This document shows, piece by piece, positions 4,042-10,665 of a stretch of 64,000 nt of DNA. Within the stretch, counting starts at the first letter, position 1. Each line of letters starts with the position of its first letter. The notes under the pieces were generated by a model that was not told the origin of the DNA, searched no databases, and saw nothing but the letters and a program-made list of their open reading frames with translations. The position numbers and the translations under genes are program-made. Source of the stretch: an uncultured Gammaproteobacteria bacterium (GTDB lineage Bacteria > Pseudomonadota > Gammaproteobacteria > Xanthomonadales > Xanthomonadaceae); the NCBI GenBank assembly GCA_964640525.1, contig CAZXGS010000008.1, positions 7,174 to 71,173 on the forward strand. Reading direction: 5' to 3'.

Positions 4042-4127
4042 GGGCGTGGTTCTCCTGGCGCGCGGGAATGGGTGGGCCGGCACGCCCAGTGTAACGGCCT
4101 TCATCGCCGCATCACGGCGTGTTCACG

Positions 4128-4628
4128 GGAATGACCGAATCTTGCCGATCGCGAGCAAGCCGTACGCGGCTCACGGTCGCGGGCAGGGTTAAGGCCGCAG
4201 CCGCTCGTGGTTCGACAGGCTCACCACGAACGGGAAATTCGATAGGCCTGTCCTGAGCCTGGCGAAAGACTCGCCACGAACGGGGATGGCGAAAGGCCCG
4301 AATTCCGTTCATGGTGAGCAGGATCGGTCGAGAACGAAGTTCGAGCCGATCCGTGTCGAACCACTTGCGTGATGGGCCGAATCTTGCCGATCGCGGGCAA
4401 GGCGCACGCGGCGCGTGGTCGCGGGCAGGGTCATGGTCGCAGCCGCTCGTGGTTCGACAGGCCTGTCCTGAGCCTGGCGAAGGGCTCACCACGAACGGGA
4501 AATTCGACAGGCCTGTCCCGAGCATGGCGAAAGGCTTACCACGAACAGGGATGGCGACGGGCCTGTCCTGAGCTTGGCGAAGGGCCTGTCCTGGACCTGG
4601 CGAAAGACTCACCACGAACGGGAATCGC
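4128..4628. repeat. modular REP array A: about 110-bp head modules followed by tandem 50-bp units containing gtcctgagcctggcgaagggctcaccacgaacgg
   Basis: 50-bp periodicity (tcgacagg at 4454 and 4504, and the variant gcgacggg at 4554). Head module present twice (about 4128 and 4375). Same architecture at 10001-10560. The track ORFs here (4112..4615 and others) are translations of the repeat. Confidence 0.85.
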
Positions 4629-4630
4629 CA

Positions 4631-5863
4631 TCAATCCGTCCGCAACGCCGCGATCGGGTCCAGCGCTGCGGCCTGGCGTGCGGGATAGATGCCGAACGCC
4701 AATCCGATCGCGGCACACACCACCGCCGGCAGCAGGATCGGCAGCGGCGCCCAGGCCACCTTCCAGCCGGCGAAGCCGGCGATCGCCAGCGCCAGCGCCA
4801 CTCCGAACGCCAGTCCGAGCAGGGCGCCGGCGATGCAGATCACCGCCGACTCGCGCATGAACTGCGCGATCACGTCCTTGCGGCGGGCGCCCAGGGCGCG
4901 CATCAGGCCGATCTCGCGGCGCCGCTCCAGGACGTTGGCGAGCATGATGTTCATGATCCCGATGCCACCCACCAGCACGCTCACGAACGCGATCGCGGCC
5001 ATCACGATGCGGAAGATGTTCTGGGTCTTCTGGTGCTGGACGAACAACTGCTGCGGCACCACCAGGCTGTAGTCGGCGACCCCGGCGTGACGTTGATCGA
5101 GCAGGGCCGACAGCACCTTGGCGTCGGCGGCCATGTGCTGGGGCCCGGACAGGCGCAGGATGAAACGGTCGATCTGCGGCTCCAGCGGCTCGAAGCGGAA
5201 GCGCGCCAGCGCGGTGGACAGGGGCAGGAACACGCGGTTGGCGTCCAGTCCCAGTTGCACGCCCTCGAACTGGCTGCCGCCGAGGTCGCGGTCGGCCAGC
5301 ACGCCGACCACGGTCAACCAGACGTGATCGACCTTGATCGGCTTGCCGAGCGCATCCCCGTGCGGGAACAAGTCGTGCGCGGCCTGGTGGCCGAGCACCG
5401 CGACCGCAGCCATGCCCTCCTCGTCGGCGGCCGTCAGCACCCGCCCCTGCGCGGCGCGCAATGAGGACAGCGCGAAGTACGCCGGGGTCACGCCGCTGGC
5501 GCTGGCATTGCCGGAGGCGGCGTCGCTGAACACGCCCCAAGTCTTGATCTGCTTCTCCGCCGCACTGGCATCGGCGTCCGGCACCACCGCGCGGGCGGCC
5601 TGGGCGTCGGCAAGGCTCAGGCCGAGGCTGCGCTTGCGGGCCTCCTTCAGCGCTTGCTCGTCCTGAGCGACGCTCTGCACGATCAGGTTGTCCAGGCCCA
5701 GGCCCTGCACCAGACGCTCGGCCTCACGGCGGCCACCCTCGCCGACCGCCTGCATGGCGACGATCGCGCCGACCCCGAAGATCAGGCCGAGCAGGGTCAG
5801 GCCGGTGCGCAGCTTGCGTCGCGCCAGTTCGTCGATGGCCTCGCGCCAGGCTTGCGGAATCAT
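4631..5863 (-). CDS. ABC transporter permease, MacB/FtsX family with periplasmic domain
   Basis: 410 aa. N-terminal TM helix, a large periplasmic segment, then the C-terminal FtsX module (IMNIMLANVLERRREIGLMRALGARRKDV...). ATGA overlap with the upstream adaptor gene. Confidence 0.9.
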   Translation of the reverse strand: MIPQAWREAIDELARRKLRTGLTLLGLIFGVGAIVAMQAVGEGGRREAERLVQGLGLDNLIVQSVAQDEQALKEARKRSLGLSLADAQAARAVVPDADASAAEKQIKTWGVFSDAASGNASASGVTPAYFALSSLRAAQGRVLTAADEEGMAAVAVLGHQAAHDLFPHGDALGKPIKVDHVWLTVVGVLADRDLGGSQFEGVQLGLDANRVFLPLSTALARFRFEPLEPQIDRFILRLSGPQHMAADAKVLSALLDQRHAGVADYSLVVPQQLFVQHQKTQNIFRIVMAAIAFVSVLVGGIGIMNIMLANVLERRREIGLMRALGARRKDVIAQFMRESAVICIAGALLGLAFGVALALAIAGFAGWKVAWAPLPILLPAVVCAAIGLAFGIYPARQAAALDPIAALRTD

Positions 5864-7065
5864 GCGCCGGCCGCCTTTCCCGTCGGCAACAACAGCACGC
5901 GATCGCCAGGCGCAAGACCCTTCAGGATTTCGCTGCGGGCCACGCCGCGCGCGCCGACCACCACCGCGCGCCGTTGCCTGCGCCCGCCGGTCAGCACGTC
6001 CACGAAGTCATGGCCACCGGCGGCGATCAAGGCCAGGTTCGGCACCGTGATGCCGGCCTTGGCGCGGCGCAGCTCCACCTGCGCGGCGAAGCGCTGGCCT
6101 GGCGTCCAGCCATGGCGCGCGGCGGCGGCGGCCGGTACCAACGCCTTGAAGGCGACGTACTTGGCCGGGTTGTCTTGATCGCGCGCCTGCGCCGCATCGG
6201 CCACCCACGACACCCGGCTGGCGATCGCCTGTGCCGGGTGGCCTTCCGGATGCAGGCGGACGGCGTCGCCGACGTGCAGGCTCTGGGCATCGAGTTGCGG
6301 CAGGCTCAGCTCGACGTCGAGCTGGCTCACGTCCGGCAGCTTGGCGAAGTCCATGCCCGCCCAGAGGGTCGCGCCGATCTGCGGCTTCTGCCCGCTCCAG
6401 TCGGCCTGCAGCACGAACACGCCGGCGTGCGGCGCGGCCAGCTCGAGTGCGGCCAGGCTCTTGCGGTCCGTGTCGGCCTTGAGCGCGATGGTGGCGCGCT
6501 GGGCGTCCAGCACCGCCAGTTCGCTGGCACCGCGCGCGCCGGACTGGGCGCGCTTCCAGTCGAGGAAGGCTTGCTTGTGGTCGAGCAGGCGCTGGTCCTG
6601 GACGGCATCCATGACCTTGTCGCGCGCATACATCGTCAGCGGCGCGTGGGCGAACCGGCGGGCGATGCCCAGGTCCACGCCGACCTGCGCCAGGTCCACG
6701 TCCACCCGGCCCTCGGCGGTGGCCAAGTCCTGCCGCTTGCCGGCCTGGTTGAGCGCGTTGCGCTGCAGATCCAGGGCCGACTGGTCCAGCTCCAGCCGGG
6801 TCTGGGTGGCGGCAAAACGCGCCACTACCTGGCCTTTGCCCACCCGGCTGCCCTCCGGCAACATCCACACCAGCTGCCGCTTCGACCACTGCGGCCCGGG
6901 CACGTTCAGTGGCGTGGCCTGGACCGATTGCAGCTCGCCTTGCGCGCCGACCGTGAGCGCGATCGGCGCTGCGACGATCGTCTCGACGGGATGCTGTGCC
7001 TGCGGAGGACTGCACGCGCAAAGCGCGGCCAGACAGGCGATGGCGATGCCGAGGCGCCGCTTCAT
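5860..7065 (-). CDS. HlyD/MFP-family periplasmic adaptor, lipoprotein (adaptor 3 of 3)
   Basis: 401 aa. Lipobox LAALCAC, lipoyl-like GSRVGKGQVVARF, a long coiled-coil segment and C-terminal beta domains. ATGA overlaps on both sides. Confidence 0.8.
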   Translation of the reverse strand: MKRRLGIAIACLAALCACSPPQAQHPVETIVAAPIALTVGAQGELQSVQATPLNVPGPQWSKRQLVWMLPEGSRVGKGQVVARFAATQTRLELDQSALDLQRNALNQAGKRQDLATAEGRVDVDLAQVGVDLGIARRFAHAPLTMYARDKVMDAVQDQRLLDHKQAFLDWKRAQSGARGASELAVLDAQRATIALKADTDRKSLAALELAAPHAGVFVLQADWSGQKPQIGATLWAGMDFAKLPDVSQLDVELSLPQLDAQSLHVGDAVRLHPEGHPAQAIASRVSWVADAAQARDQDNPAKYVAFKALVPAAAAARHGWTPGQRFAAQVELRRAKAGITVPNLALIAAGGHDFVDVLTGGRRQRRAVVVGARGVARSEILKGLAPGDRVLLLPTGKAAGA

Positions 7066-8027
7066 CGCCGCACCTTCGTGGTGTCGATCGTCACGCTCAC
7101 CGGCTGGCCGGGACGCAGACTGGCGGTGCGGCCGCTGAGCGCGATCGTCACATCGACCACCGGCACCGGCTCGGACCGGCTCTTGCTGTGGACGACCTGG
7201 CCGATCGCAACCACGCGCCCGTCCAGACTGTTGCCCGTACCGCCGTCCACGCCCACCTGCACCGGCTCACCCAGCGCCAGCCGCGCCAGCTCGCGCTCGG
7301 CCACCCAGGCCCGGATCTGCAACGAAGAAAGGTCTGGAATCTGCGCCACCGCCTGACCGCGCCAGACCCGCGAACCGACGTCTATCTTGCCGCCGTTCCA
7401 GTCGTCGGCGTGGATCATCACCCCGCTGCGCGGGGCGGTCACGGTCAGCGCCGCGATCGAGGCCAGCAACGTGCCCACCTCGCCGCGCAATTGCCCGGCT
7501 TCGGCTTGCGCCAGGCGCAATTCCTCGCTGCGCTGGCGCGCCTGGAGCTGCTGGCGCTGCTGCTGCAGCGCGTATTTCGCGCGCGCCTGTTGCAGGCCGA
7601 TCACCAGCTTCTTGTAGGCGTTGCCGGCGATCAGATCCTTCGGCTCGGAGGCCTTGCGTTGCGCCTTTTCGAAGTCGGCGCGCGCCTGCTCGGTGTCCAG
7701 TGCGGACTGGCGCTCGCGCTCGGCCAGGTCCAGTTGCAGGCTGGCCAGCTCGGTCTGCTTTTCCTTGAGCTTGCTCTGCTTTTCGTTCAACCGGGTGGCG
7801 AGGTCGCCGGCGTCGAACGCCGCCACCACTTCACCCTTGCGGACGCTGGCGCCGTCGGCGGCGAGTTGGGTGAGGTTGAGCATCCACAGACCATCGACCG
7901 TTGGCGGCGCGATCGCCGCGCTGTCGCGGGCGACCACTTCGCCTTGCGCATGCACGGAATTCGAGGCGGGCGTGGCCGCAGCCAGCCCGAGGCCGGCAAG
8001 CAGGAGGCTGGCGATCGCAACCTTCAT
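7062..8027 (-). CDS. HlyD/MFP-family periplasmic adaptor (adaptor 2 of 3); conservative start
   Basis: Track ORF 7062..8438. The ATG at 8027 gives MKVAIASLLLAGLGLAAATPASNSVHAQ/GEVV..., a canonical signal peptide, followed by lipoyl-like GASVRKGEVVAAFD and a coiled coil. In-frame duplicate starts exist at 8168 and 8309 because of the 141-bp tandem repeat. Confidence 0.75.
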   Translation of the reverse strand: MKVAIASLLLAGLGLAAATPASNSVHAQGEVVARDSAAIAPPTVDGLWMLNLTQLAADGASVRKGEVVAAFDAGDLATRLNEKQSKLKEKQTELASLQLDLAERERQSALDTEQARADFEKAQRKASEPKDLIAGNAYKKLVIGLQQARAKYALQQQRQQLQARQRSEELRLAQAEAGQLRGEVGTLLASIAALTVTAPRSGVMIHADDWNGGKIDVGSRVWRGQAVAQIPDLSSLQIRAWVAERELARLALGEPVQVGVDGGTGNSLDGRVVAIGQVVHSKSRSEPVPVVDVTIALSGRTASLRPGQPVSVTIDTTKVRR

Positions 8028-8366
8028 GCGTGGCCCTTGCCGCCATCGGCAGGCGCGCTGCCGACCTCGACCCGCACGCTCATTTTGCGCATGCACGGCA
8101 TTCGCGGCGGGCGTGGCCGCGGCGAACCCGAGGCCGGCAAGCAGGAGGCTGGCGATCGCAACCTTCATGCGTGGCCCTTGCCGCCATCGGCAGGCGCGCT
8201 GCCGACCTCGACCCGCACGCTCATTTTGCGCATGCACGGCATTCGCGGCGGGCGTGGCCGCGGCGAACCCGAGGCCGGCAAGCAGGAGGCTGGCGATCGC
8301 AACCTTCATGCGTGGCCCTTGCCGCCATCGGCAGGCGCGCTGCCGACCTCGACCCGCACGCTCATT
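7944..8366. repeat. 3.0 x 141-bp perfect-phase tandem repeat spanning the junction between two adaptor genes
   Basis: Units 7944-8084, 8085-8225 and 8226-8366. Units 2 and 3 are identical by eye. Unit 1 differs at 5 positions, all between about 7958 and 7984. Each unit holds the last 19 codons plus stop of the upstream gene and the first 28 codons of the downstream gene. Confidence 0.9.
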
Positions 8367-9292
8367 CCCGGCCGCAGCGCCGTCGGTGGCGTGCCGTCGA
8401 TCGCAACGTCGACCTGGAAATAATGGCCGCGGCCCCACTCGGCCTTGGCTTCCGGCGCCCCGCCGATGGCGCTGACGTGGCCGGCCATGCGCCGGCCCGG
8501 CCAGGCATCGAACACCAAGCCCACGCGCTCACCCACGCGCAGGCCGGCGCGGTCGGACTCGATCACCCACGCACGCACTGCCATCGGACCGGCGCCGACC
8601 ACTTCGCCGATCTCGCGACCGGGGAAACTCGATGCGCCCTCGTCGATCCGGCCGCCATTCTCGCTCTCGCTGTCGAACGCATGCAGCAGCACGCCATCGC
8701 GGTCCGCAACCACCTGCGCCATGCCGACCTGGGTGCCGGCATAGTCGGCCTGGAGGGTCAGGTTGGCGACTTCCAGCTTGCCGTCCTCGACCCGTCGCGC
8801 GACTGCCGTCTGCGCCGCCGCCAGTTCCTTGCGCTTCAGCGCCAACTCGTTTTTCGCCCGCAGCGCCTGGCCCTGGTAGCGGTCGTAGTCCAGCGCCGAG
8901 ATCAACTGCCGCGGGATCGCCGCATCCACCTGTGCGTCGTCGAGCGCGGCCTGCGCATCCACCTGCGCGATCTGCGCGTCCACGACCTTGACCTTCAGCG
9001 CCGCGACTTCCTTGTCGACGCGCGCCTGCGCCTGCTCGATCTGCGCCTTGGCGTCGCGCACCAGGGTGGCGAACTGGCCCGGGTCGATCCGCACCAGCAC
9101 CTCGCCCTTGCGCACCCGCGAGCCGTCGGGCAGGTAATAGCGCAACACCACCGGCGAGGAATTCGACGGCGGGGTGTAGAGGATCTGGGCATCGACCGCG
9201 CGCACCTGCCCGGTGAGCAGGGTCGTCGCCGGGGCCGCCGACGGCAGCGCCAGCAGCAGCGTCAGCGCCACCGCGTCAGGCCGCCGAATCAT
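8306..9292 (-). CDS. HlyD/MFP-family periplasmic adaptor (adaptor 1 of 3)
   Basis: Track ORF 8306..9334 trimmed to ATG 9292 (MIRRPDAVALTLLLALPSAAPA). Lipoyl-like GSRVRKGEVLVRIDPGQ and coiled-coil AQIEQAQARVDKEVAALKVKVVDAQIAQVDAQ. Its start overlaps the ATPase stop by 17 nt. Confidence 0.8.
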   Translation of the reverse strand: MIRRPDAVALTLLLALPSAAPATTLLTGQVRAVDAQILYTPPSNSSPVVLRYYLPDGSRVRKGEVLVRIDPGQFATLVRDAKAQIEQAQARVDKEVAALKVKVVDAQIAQVDAQAALDDAQVDAAIPRQLISALDYDRYQGQALRAKNELALKRKELAAAQTAVARRVEDGKLEVANLTLQADYAGTQVGMAQVVADRDGVLLHAFDSESENGGRIDEGASSFPGREIGEVVGAGPMAVRAWVIESDRAGLRVGERVGLVFDAWPGRRMAGHVSAIGGAPEAKAEWGRGHYFQVDVAIDGTPPTALRPGMSVRVEVGSAPADGGKGHA

Positions 9293-9950
9293 GGTCCACC
9301 TTGCCATCGCGCAAACGGATCTCGCGTTGCGCACGCGCGGCCACCTCGGCGTCGTGGGTGACCAGGACGATGGTCTGGCCGCCGGCGTGCAATTCCTCGA
9401 ACAAGCCCAGCACGTCGCCGGCGCTGCGCGAATCGAGGTTGCCGGTGGGCTCGTCGGCCAGCAGCAGGGCCGGCTGCATGACCAGCGCGCGGGCGATCGC
9501 GGCGCGTTGCATCTGCCCGCCGGACAACTCGCCGGGGCGATGGTCGGTGCGCGCGGCCAGCCCGACCCGCGCGAGCAGGCCGCGCGCCCGCTCGCGCGCG
9601 TCCGGGTCGGGGGTGCGCGCGAAGCGCAGCGGCAGCAGCACGTTCTCGAGCACGCTCAGGCGCGGCAACAAGTGGAAGGACTGGAACACGAAACCGATCC
9701 GGCGATTGCGCAATTCGCTGGCGGCCTCGTCGTCGAGGCTCGCCACGTCGTGCTCCTCCAGCCGGTAACGGCCCTCGTCGGGCCGATCCAGACAGCCGAG
9801 CAGGTTGAGCAGGCTGGACTTGCCCGAGCCCGAGGCGCCGGTGATCGCGACGAACTGGCCGCGACCGATGCCCAGGTCGATCCCGGCCAGCGCGTGCACG
9901 GTCGCCCCGCTCATCGCGTAGCGGCGGTGGATGCCGGTGAGTTCGATCAT
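9276..9950 (-). CDS. ABC transporter ATP-binding protein, MacB/LolD-like
   Basis: Track ORF 9276..10079 trimmed to ATG 9950 (MIELTGIHRRY); the upstream part is REP translation. Walker A GASGSGKSSLLN, signature LSGGQMQRAAIARAL, Walker B LLLADEPTGNLD. Confidence 0.92.
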   Translation of the reverse strand: MIELTGIHRRYAMSGATVHALAGIDLGIGRGQFVAITGASGSGKSSLLNLLGCLDRPDEGRYRLEEHDVASLDDEAASELRNRRIGFVFQSFHLLPRLSVLENVLLPLRFARTPDPDARERARGLLARVGLAARTDHRPGELSGGQMQRAAIARALVMQPALLLADEPTGNLDSRSAGDVLGLFEELHAGGQTIVLVTHDAEVAARAQREIRLRDGKVDHDSAA

Positions 9951-10000: not shown

Positions 10001-10560
10001 CGCAACTGCGGGCAAAGTCATGGTTGCAGCCGCTCGTGGTTCGACAGGCCTGTCCTGAGCCTGGCGAAGGGCTCACCACGAACGGGAAATTCGACAGGCC
10101 TGTCCTGAGCCTGACGAAGGGCTCACCACGAACGGGAAGCTCGACAGGCTTGCCCTGAGCTTGGCGAAGGGCTCACCATGAATGGGGATGGCGACAGGCT
10201 CTGCACAAAGGGAGATGGCAAGGGGGATGGCGACAGGCTCAAGACGAACCTGGTATCCGAAGTCCGTTCGTGGTGAGCAGGATCGGTCGAGAACGAAGTT
10301 CGAGCCGATCCGTGTCGAACCACTTGCGTGATGGGCCGAATCTTGCCGATCGCGGGCAAGGCGCACGCGGCGCGTGGTCGCGGGCAGGGTCATGGTCGCA
10401 GCCGCTCGTGGTTCGACAGGCCTGTCCTGAGCCTGACGAAGGGCTCACCACGAACGGATACCGCGACAAGCCTGTCCTGAGCATGCCGAAGGGCTCACCA
10501 CGAACGAAAAATTCGACAAACCCGTCCAGAGCTTGGCGAAGGGCTCACCACGAACGGAGT
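10001..10560. repeat. modular REP array B (same family as array A)
   Basis: 50-bp units start at 10041, 10091 and 10141, and again at 10413, 10463 and 10513. Head module at about 10330. Lies between the tkt stop and the ABC ATPase start. Confidence 0.85.
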
Positions 10561-10665
10561 TGACGGGCTCGACACCGGCGTGCGCCAAGGCGACAGCAGG
10601 CTGGTTCGACATGCTCCGCATCCGCACCGGCCGGGTCGATGTCAGCCGCTTCGATTCCCGCACCA

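Follow-up and report, generated by a model that had tools for sequence, protein, structure and literature searches.

A MacB-type envelope pump of Lysobacterales with three different periplasmic adaptors and a putative mixed adaptor ring

The DNA analyzed here (the window) is a stretch of 64,000 nucleotides from contig CAZXGS010000008.1 (positions 7,174 to 71,173) of an uncultured gammaproteobacterium of the family Xanthomonadaceae. On its minus strand, five open reading frames (ORFs) lie head to tail and code for an ATPase, three different periplasmic adaptors (Ad1, Ad2, and Ad3), and a permease. Together, the five genes make up one MacB-type (type VII ABC, ATP-binding cassette) envelope pump, a member of a widespread and apparently unstudied family of MacB-type pumps whose defining trait is a three-part adaptor. 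As for the way in which the parts come together, we favor, as probable though well short of certain, a single mixed ring containing all three adaptors, probably arranged as (Ad1-Ad2-Ad3)x2, on the two-fold MacB dimer.

An earlier description made from the letters of the DNA (the sequence-only reading) had proposed this five-gene operon, and its gene sizes and coordinates were borne out both by the ORFs and by the public gene calls for the contig, which give identical lengths for all five genes (Table 1). The region has a G+C content of about 70%, and the assembly that holds the window (GCA_964640525.1) amounts to 3.35 Mb in 125 contigs. The ATPase matches Pfam ABC_tran (3.6e-32), and its best NCBIfam models are the N-terminal part of MacB (5e-68) and LolD (7e-67). 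All of its motifs are intact as read in the translation, namely Walker A (GASGSGKS), the signature (LSGGQ), Walker B (LLLADEPTG), and the H-loop, and it is predicted to be a catalytically competent nucleotide-binding subunit of the MacB/LolD/FtsE group. The permease, which is encoded by a gene separate from that of the ATPase, matches Pfam MacB_PCD (residues 20 to 247, 8.7e-33) and FtsX (residues 290 to 402, 4.8e-21) and aligns over its full length with solved MacB structures (5lil, 5.9e-46; 5nik_J, 1.6e-45). It has a big periplasmic domain between the first and second transmembrane (TM) helices, with the FtsX C-terminal helices after it, and by sequence it appears to be the four-helix, MacB_PCD/FtsX permease of a MacB-type (type VII ABC) pump. 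The sequence-only reading also had all junctions of the operon overlapping, which holds for three of them (17, 4, and 4 nt) and fails for Ad1/Ad2 when the 321-aa model of Ad2 is used.

The three adaptors are distinct paralogues, as had been supposed, with a pairwise identity of 27 to 29%, no large insertions or deletions between them, and one-to-one orthologues in relatives. All three match the HlyD/RND_mfp models weakly (1e-15 to 1e-18, below the curated cut-offs). The match to NCBIfam RND_mfp stops at model position 246 of 322 in Ad1 (2.7e-15) and at position 247 in Ad2, which also matches Pfam HlyD_D23 (1.2e-12) and HlyD_3 (1.1e-11), and it extends to position 307 in Ad3. Ad1 and Ad2 are made of a Sec-type signal peptide, a lipoyl domain, a long hairpin, and a beta-barrel, with neither a membrane-proximal domain nor a membrane anchor. 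Signal peptides were assessed by eye from the alignments, not by a dedicated predictor. In the Ad1 orthologues, the first beta-strand (LTGEVR) begins right after an A-x-A signal peptide, the unfused Ad2 orthologues resemble them, and the lipobox cysteine of Ad3 (Cys18) is invariant in an alignment of 16 sequences and conserved in at least 90% of the rows of an alignment of 86. These alignments agree with the earlier proposal of cleavable Sec or lipoprotein signals instead of a membrane anchor, and the same pattern of Sec signal, Sec signal, and lipoprotein recurs in a system that is 23% identical (L022).

A profile search for Ad3 orthologues, with one genome per species, returned 166 loci, and we examined the 80 best. 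All of these belong to the Lysobacterales, and they include Lysobacter enzymogenes, L. antibioticus, Pseudoxanthomonas, Thermomonas, Arenimonas, Chiayiivirga, Silanimonas, Frateuria, Dyella, Rhodanobacter, and Fulvimonas. When the five window proteins were used as tblastn queries, the order ATPase-Ad1-Ad2-Ad3-permease was found in every locus with sufficient contig, and the junctions in these relatives are nearly always 4-nt ATGA overlaps. The identities between one-to-one orthologues are 42 to 60% for Ad1, 41 to 58% for Ad2, 48 to 60% for Ad3, 65 to 85% for the ATPase, and 64 to 74% for the permease. The layout of ATPase, three adaptors, and permease, for which the sequence-only reading had suggested a survey of gene neighborhoods, is therefore common and conserved. 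One of the loci, titled "Patescibacteria group bacterium" (L032), has an operon typical of the Lysobacterales and clusters in the tree with loci of the Rhodanobacteraceae and Ahniellaceae, so that the bin is probably either mislabeled or contaminated.

In an even sample of the order, a full-length Ad3 orthologue was present in 133 of 401 genomes, 41 of 99 genera, and eight families, almost always as a single full-length copy. A class-wide even sample of 400 Gammaproteobacteria genomes contained one genome outside the order with a full-length Ad3 orthologue; the remaining matches were generic, C-terminal ones to ordinary adaptors. Within the genus of the window itself, the pump is gained and lost, as only 4 of 16 genomes carry the Ad3 orthologue.

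We also inspected six further loci, one from the same genus (L014, with an Ad3 identity of about 60%) and five that are very divergent (L020, L021, L022, L103, and L104, with 23 to 30% where measured). All six have three adaptors between the ATPase and a MacB-type permease. Listed in the order ATPase, three adaptors, and permease, the proteins measure 224, up to 387, up to 363, 399, and 410 aa in L014; 225, 340, 389, 394, and 411 aa in L020 (family f4); 226, 318, 393, 396, and 414 aa in L021 (family f8); 221, 319, 326, 403, and 409 aa in L022 (family f9); 235, 331, 344, 405, and 416 aa in L103 (family f7); and 233, 324, 385, 399, and 416 aa in L104, which comes from another order. The long middle adaptor of L020, L021, and L104 (385 to 393 aa) can be aligned to Ad3 from end to end, the membrane-proximal domain included. 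The existence of short-short-long and short-long-long lineages suggests a stepwise loss of this domain.

All three adaptors are under purifying selection and none is decaying. The median ratios of nonsynonymous to synonymous substitution (dN/dS), calculated from 18 pairs of moderately diverged loci, are 0.107 for Ad1, 0.108 for Ad2, and 0.123 for Ad3, with 0.055 for the ATPase and 0.060 for the permease. Among 78 loci, the sole gene defect seen is a single in-frame stop codon, which belongs to Frateuria hangzhouensis STR12 (L084). The idea that two of the adaptor genes might be pseudogenes in relatives, which the sequence-only reading had named as a possible refutation, does not hold. The stop of L084 lies at about position 7990, near the end of the Ad1 part of an otherwise fused Ad1-Ad2 gene, and reflects either an error in sequencing or a secondary split of recent date. 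In two Chiayiivirga loci (L024:2677-3508 and L036:8292-9000), a noncoding insert of 600 to 750 bp lies between Ad2 and Ad3. It resembles a miniature inverted-repeat transposable element, with long terminal inverted repeats (CCTTCTCTTTGGTTACTTTCTCTTGG), and breaks the ATGA overlap, leaving both genes intact.

Ad1 and Ad2 are joined in a single ORF of about 630 aa in 30 of the 78 loci. A linker of 15 to 35 residues, rich in Pro, Ala, Asp, and Thr, replaces the Ad1 stop and the Ad2 signal peptide; it lies between the PGMSVRV motif with which Ad1 ends and the L-x-x-x-GE motif with which mature Ad2 begins, both of them conserved, and is the most variable part of the fused protein (entropy of 2.87, against a mean of 1.38). 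The fused or split state has changed at least five times on a 79-row tree built from Ad3 and the permease, with all of these changes forced by well-supported branches. The fused proteins make up at least 237 clusters at 90% identity in a large protein database, where those from Dyella, Rhodanobacter, Frateuria, and Fulvimonas isolates are annotated as "HlyD family secretion protein." Likewise, when 1.84 billion cluster representatives were searched with Ad2, 39 of the 50 closest clusters (at 50% identity) were two-module proteins of 580 to 800 aa. Two proteins, P0260 and P0265, are fusions that have kept the membrane-proximal domain in one or both modules. A third, P0303 (1006 aa), has three stretches matching Ad2 and was considered as a triple fusion; it was rejected as a probable high-GC ORF artifact, given its long Arg/Ala-rich stretches that look out of frame. 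We never saw a fusion of Ad2 with Ad3 among the loci examined, which is to be expected, as such a fusion would remove the lipid-modified N-terminal cysteine of Ad3. The window itself is unfused, with Ad1 ending in TGA and Ad2 having its own start and signal peptide. Repeated fusion of adjacent genes in a fixed order is classical evidence that their products are direct neighbors within one complex and occur there in equal numbers.

We modeled with AlphaFold the natural Ad1-Ad2 fusion of Dyella ginsengisoli (L071), from an alignment of 95 fused homologues, and the Ad3 of the window, from 86 homologues. A mixed alignment of fused and separate Ad1/Ad2 rows was discarded, since MAFFT had put the Ad1 rows on the Ad2 half. 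The fusion model has a pLDDT of 89.1 and a pTM of 0.77, and each of its halves shows a lipoyl domain, a hairpin, and a beta-barrel end, without a membrane-proximal domain. Two halves free to take any orientation would not reach such a pTM, which implies, as far as the model goes, a defined mutual orientation. The Ad3 model (pLDDT of 91.5) contains all four adaptor domains, with the membrane-proximal domain at about residues 325 to 391. The lipoyl domain and coiled-coil hairpin that the sequence-only reading had ascribed to each adaptor are thus found in these models. The helices of the hairpin have nearly the same length in the three proteins (53 and 59 residues in Ad1 and in Ad2, 53 and 58 in Ad3). 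The hairpin tips are among the best-conserved parts of each adaptor, and each paralogue keeps its own tip signature down to 23 to 30% overall identity; by eye, the only way in which we looked for it, no adaptor has a clean match to the RLS tip motif (R-x3-L-x6-S).

Structural searches separate the adaptors into two types. With Foldseek, the best matches of Ad3 are MacA subunits in MacAB-TolC (9qgy_G, 5e-22; 5nik_D, 1e-20), and phmmer also relates Ad3 to MacA (6e-5). Both halves of the fusion have as best structural match EmrA in EmrAB-TolC (8zal_B, E value of 1e-12, target-normalized TM-score of 0.61), and EmrA 4tko is also among the best Foldseek matches of the fusion; for Ad1 and Ad2, the NCBIfam EmrA model reaches 42 bits, far short of its cut-off of 391. 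From the models, Ad1 and Ad2 appear to be soluble, EmrA-like adaptors, and Ad3 a MacA-like lipoprotein.

The arrangement that we favor starts from the geometry of the known pump. The MacB dimer of MacAB-TolC is topped by a MacA hexamer, and three MacA monomers touch each MacB, with two of their membrane-proximal domains contacting the Sabre subdomain and one the Porter (Greene et al. 2018, PMC5985334). With a six-fold ring above a two-fold pump, there are therefore three non-equivalent adaptor positions, in the same way that a three-fold RND pump offers two, both of which are filled with different adaptors in TriABC. As Ad1 and Ad2 are often fused in relatives, a mixed ring of all three adaptors becomes probable. 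In this ring, the three paralogues would build one hexameric tube, a "dimer of heterotrimers" with the order 1-2-3-1-2-3, and each paralogue would take its own one of the three non-equivalent places around a MacB protomer. Ad3 would anchor the ring to the membrane through its lipid and to the permease through its membrane-proximal domain, and Ad1 and Ad2 would fill out the rings of beta-barrels and lipoyl domains as well as the hairpin tube. With hairpins of equal length, all six tips would reach one height and could dock tip to tip on a TolC-like channel whose gene lies elsewhere. In the inner membrane, the ATPase and permease would form a two-fold dimer, with ATP hydrolysis setting the periplasmic domains in motion. 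Transport would presumably run from the periplasm into the tube, the ATP-driven closing of these domains squeezing the substrate into it, as MacB does. The ATGA overlaps suggest coupled, roughly equimolar translation, from which a 2:2:2 adaptor ratio and a 2:2:2:2:2 complex would follow, matching the known 6:2 ratio of adaptor to MacB.

Several points weigh against such a ring. A C2 ring with three types of subunit mismatches a three-fold TolC, and each paralogue would have to fit both kinds of groove. The membrane-proximal domain would be present in only 2 of 6 protomers, even though this domain stimulates MacB in E. coli. No channel, regulator, or substrate gene is conserved beside the operon, the Ad1/Ad2 junction is triplicated in the window (see below), so that Ad2 expression may be disturbed here, and the evidence for co-assembly of the three adaptors is indirect. 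Besides, the Ad1-Ad2 fusion is equally compatible with a hexamer of the (Ad1-Ad2)x3 type, in which Ad1 and Ad2 alone would form the tube, in the manner of TriA and TriB, and Ad3 would stay outside the ring as a separate lipoprotein partner that might form its own assemblies on the permease, or load or regulate the pump. Ad1 and Ad2 are indeed the only adaptors ever fused, a ring of this kind would suit the three-fold symmetry of a TolC-like channel, and a trimer of dimers is the accepted arrangement for paired or fused RND adaptors (PMC4446572). However, it would lack any membrane-proximal domain or anchor with which to hold the permease, the equimolar coupled translation would leave spare subunits, and the complete adaptor build of Ad3, with a hairpin of equal length, is hard to explain outside the tube. 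The missing Ad2-Ad3 fusion does not help to choose, as the lipid anchor would be destroyed under either model. All in all, we consider that a tube without Ad3 is unlikely.

The remaining alternatives concern the partner in the outer membrane. The absence of a TolC-like gene reported for the window extends to the whole contig, and the genome has six outer-membrane factor (OMF) genes of the OEP/TolC family on other contigs. With so many channels at hand, and with conserved tip signatures that differ among the three hairpins, the adaptors could form three alternative homo-hexamers, each linking the pump to a different outer-membrane channel or substrate. Yet alternatives would be lost now and then, and no adaptor has been lost in any complete related locus or in the six further loci. 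The genes are also translationally coupled, the repeated fusion forces Ad1 and Ad2 into the same assembly, and these two lack the domain and the anchor for engaging the permease alone, all of which makes separate homo-hexamers highly improbable. Between the two options offered by the sequence-only reading, a hetero-oligomeric ring and alternative adaptors for different partners or substrates, the evidence therefore favors the first, by co-retention, purifying selection, ATGA overlaps, and at least five fusions.

A pump without any outer-membrane docking has to be considered as well, as we found no OMF gene linked to the operon in the 80 loci or in the divergent loci checked. A search beside the operon for an OMF, regulator, or substrate gene gave none that is conserved: the commonest neighbor family is present in 12 of the 80 loci, and those that recur follow lineage synteny; the five genes are a self-contained module. 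Such a pump would work only at the inner membrane and in the periplasm, like YknXYZ, Spr0693-0695, or LolCDE, perhaps protecting the membrane against a toxic peptide or pulling something out of it. Gram-positive MacB-type pumps with adaptors do function without an outer-membrane channel (PMC5985334). Nevertheless, the hosts here are Gram-negative and have several OMF genes, and the hairpins, about 80 Å long, equal in the three adaptors, and with conserved tips, fit tip-to-tip docking. The E. coli macAB operon likewise lacks tolC, and with six OMF genes elsewhere in the genome, an unlinked TolC gene is not unusual. We regard the absence of docking as quite unlikely.

If the mixed ring of three adaptors exists, a more general rule can be put forward, although we do so tentatively and with some doubt: the number of paralogues would follow the symmetry of the transporter, and an open skirt would admit bulky periplasmic cargo sideways. 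A two-fold MacB dimer splits the six adaptor positions into three kinds, and a three-fold RND trimer splits them into two (TriA and TriB). Each position would then have its dedicated protein, and with the membrane-proximal domain kept by just one of the three (by two in some lineages), the skirt would be open on most sides. The cargo could be peptides, small folded proteins, or lipid-linked molecules.

The Ad1/Ad2 junction of the window, which is the same site where relatives have fused the two genes, carries a tandem repeat in the assembled sequence (period of 141, 3.0 copies, 98% matches in Tandem Repeats Finder), with copies that are 96% identical to each other. Each 141-bp unit consists of the last 19 codons of Ad1 plus the TGA stop, followed by the first 28 codons of Ad2, which code for the signal peptide. 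There are consequently three in-frame ATGs for Ad2. The first alone (8309) overlaps the Ad1 stop in an ATGA, and the 321-aa model, which is also the choice of the gene caller, begins at the third (8027), 278 nt further downstream. The frame of Ad2 stays open upstream as far as the ATG at 8309, and a protein translated from there would bear three tandem signal peptides. Copies 2 and 3 of the repeat each hold a 19-codon mini-ORF, corresponding to the Ad1 tail, that ends in an ATGA on the following Ad2 start. We did not see the triplication in the two closest relatives (L023 and L034).

The operon is also flanked on both sides by arrays of 50-bp repeat units, and the 288-nt composites contained in the two flanking arrays are 91% identical. 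No sigma-70-like promoter was found in the repeat region upstream of the ATPase gene. Direct repeats on both flanks could mediate loss of the operon, which would fit its presence in only 4 of the 16 genomes of the genus.

Table 1. Genes of the pump operon and repeats at its junction and flanks (positions in the window)
Feature	Position	Strand	Basis or remark
ABC ATPase, 224 aa, MacB nucleotide-binding domain (NBD)/LolD-like	9276-9950	minus	Pfam and NCBIfam matches, motifs
Adaptor 1 (Ad1), 328 aa	8306-9292	minus	NCBIfam RND_mfp, AlphaFold of fused orthologue
Adaptor 2 (Ad2), 321 aa	7062-8027	minus	Pfam HlyD_D23, HlyD_3; RND_mfp
Adaptor 3 (Ad3), 401 aa, lipoprotein, MacA-like (from models)	5860-7065	minus	AlphaFold, Foldseek, phmmer
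MacB-type permease, 410 aa	4631-5863	minus	Pfam MacB_PCD, FtsX; solved MacB match
141-bp x3 tandem repeat across Ad1/Ad2 junction	7944-8366	.	Tandem Repeats Finder
Array of 50-bp repeat units downstream of operon	4112-4636	.	includes 288-nt composite 4298-4585
Repeat arrays upstream of ATPase gene	10001-10572	.	includes 288-nt composite 10257-10544

Pumps like MacAB-TolC are central to resistance to antibiotics and peptides and to the export of toxins and siderophores, and it is still debated how six identical adaptors serve both a two-fold pump and a three-fold outer channel. The family described here is a natural experiment on this question, in which the adaptor has been divided into three specialized proteins, two of them stripped of a domain and repeatedly joined. 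Structural work or genetics in a cultured host, such as Lysobacter enzymogenes, L. antibioticus, Dyella, Frateuria, or Rhodanobacter, would show which positions need the membrane-proximal domain, which ones contact the outer channel, and whether the "dimer of heterotrimers" exists. Roughly one in three of the genomes sampled from this large order of soil- and water-dwelling bacteria carries the pump, to which no substrate has been assigned.

The sequence-only reading knew of no characterized MacB-type system with three adaptors, and our full-text literature search led to the same result, as it returned no publication on a MacB-type pump with three or two adaptors and no relevant paper on MacB in Lysobacter or Rhodanobacter. 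That the arrangement might be common and already assigned, which had been named as a possible refutation, is correct in its first half; no publication that we found assigns the layout to a known system. Reviews of tripartite pumps (2021, PMC8277102), of adaptors (2026, PMC13328181), and of the MacB family (2018, PMC5985334) name TriABC as the only multi-adaptor system. Two candidate precedents were discarded: VarABCDEF of Vibrio cholerae, with its "two membrane fusion proteins," has one adaptor plus a 40-residue remnant (PMC5595328), and the "three membrane fusion proteins" of a Geobacter paper belong to three separate RND pumps (PMC8963506).

The closest known relative in overall design is MacAB-TolC (E. 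coli, A. actinomycetemcomitans, and A. baumannii), the prototype of the type VII ABC tripartite efflux pumps. The window permease has the fold and topology of MacB, the ATPase resembles the MacB NBD, Ad3 has the four adaptor domains and resembles MacA in the assembled pump, and the OMF gene is unlinked, as in E. coli. In contrast, the window has three adaptor species instead of the one that forms the MacA homo-hexamer, and two of them are without a membrane-proximal domain or any anchor. The hairpin helices are about 80 Å long, against 70 Å for the MacA stem (PMC5985334). Ad3 is predicted to be anchored by a lipid, whereas MacA has an N-terminal transmembrane helix, and the ATPase and permease are encoded by separate genes.

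As regards the use of several adaptors, TriABC-OpmH of Pseudomonas aeruginosa is an RND pump that needs two different ones, TriA and TriB, both of which keep all four domains. Among studied systems, it is the sole precedent we found for paralogous adaptors that share one mixed ring and play non-equivalent roles (PMC4338810, PMC13328181). The transporter TriC is a three-fold RND protein served by two adaptor species in a trimer of dimers; here the transporter is an ABC pump of the two-fold MacB type, with three species that are proposed to make a dimer of trimers. The three-domain build of Ad1 and Ad2, with its long hairpin and no membrane-proximal domain, is that of EmrA in EmrAB-TolC. However, EmrA is anchored by an N-terminal transmembrane segment and works with an MFS transporter that lacks a large periplasmic domain, whereas Ad1 and Ad2 have cleavable-looking signal peptides and a MacB-type partner, and the sequence similarity is negligible. 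With the cyanobacterial glycolipid exporter DevBCA-HgdD and with YknWXYZ and Spr0693-0695, the window shares separate genes for ATPase, permease, and adaptor in one operon, but each of those systems has one adaptor species (PMC5985334), and the window ATPase fits the DevA model worse than the MacB or LolD models.

Finally, mixed adaptor rings are established for TriABC, and both natural and engineered fused dimers are known (PMC4446572, PMC4338810). The natural one is DSY0927 of Desulfitobacterium hafniense and the engineered one AcrA-AcrA, each with two modules per chain, and fused dimers of this kind have been taken as evidence that adaptors act as adjacent pairs in a "trimer of dimers" (PMC4446572). 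In having two modules per chain, the fused Ad1-Ad2 proteins of Dyella, Rhodanobacter, and Frateuria resemble DSY0927, and the window differs from it in having Ad1 and Ad2 as separate genes. Unlike DSY0927, the Ad1-Ad2 fusion joins two old and different paralogues, always beside an unfused lipoprotein adaptor and a MacB-type pump.

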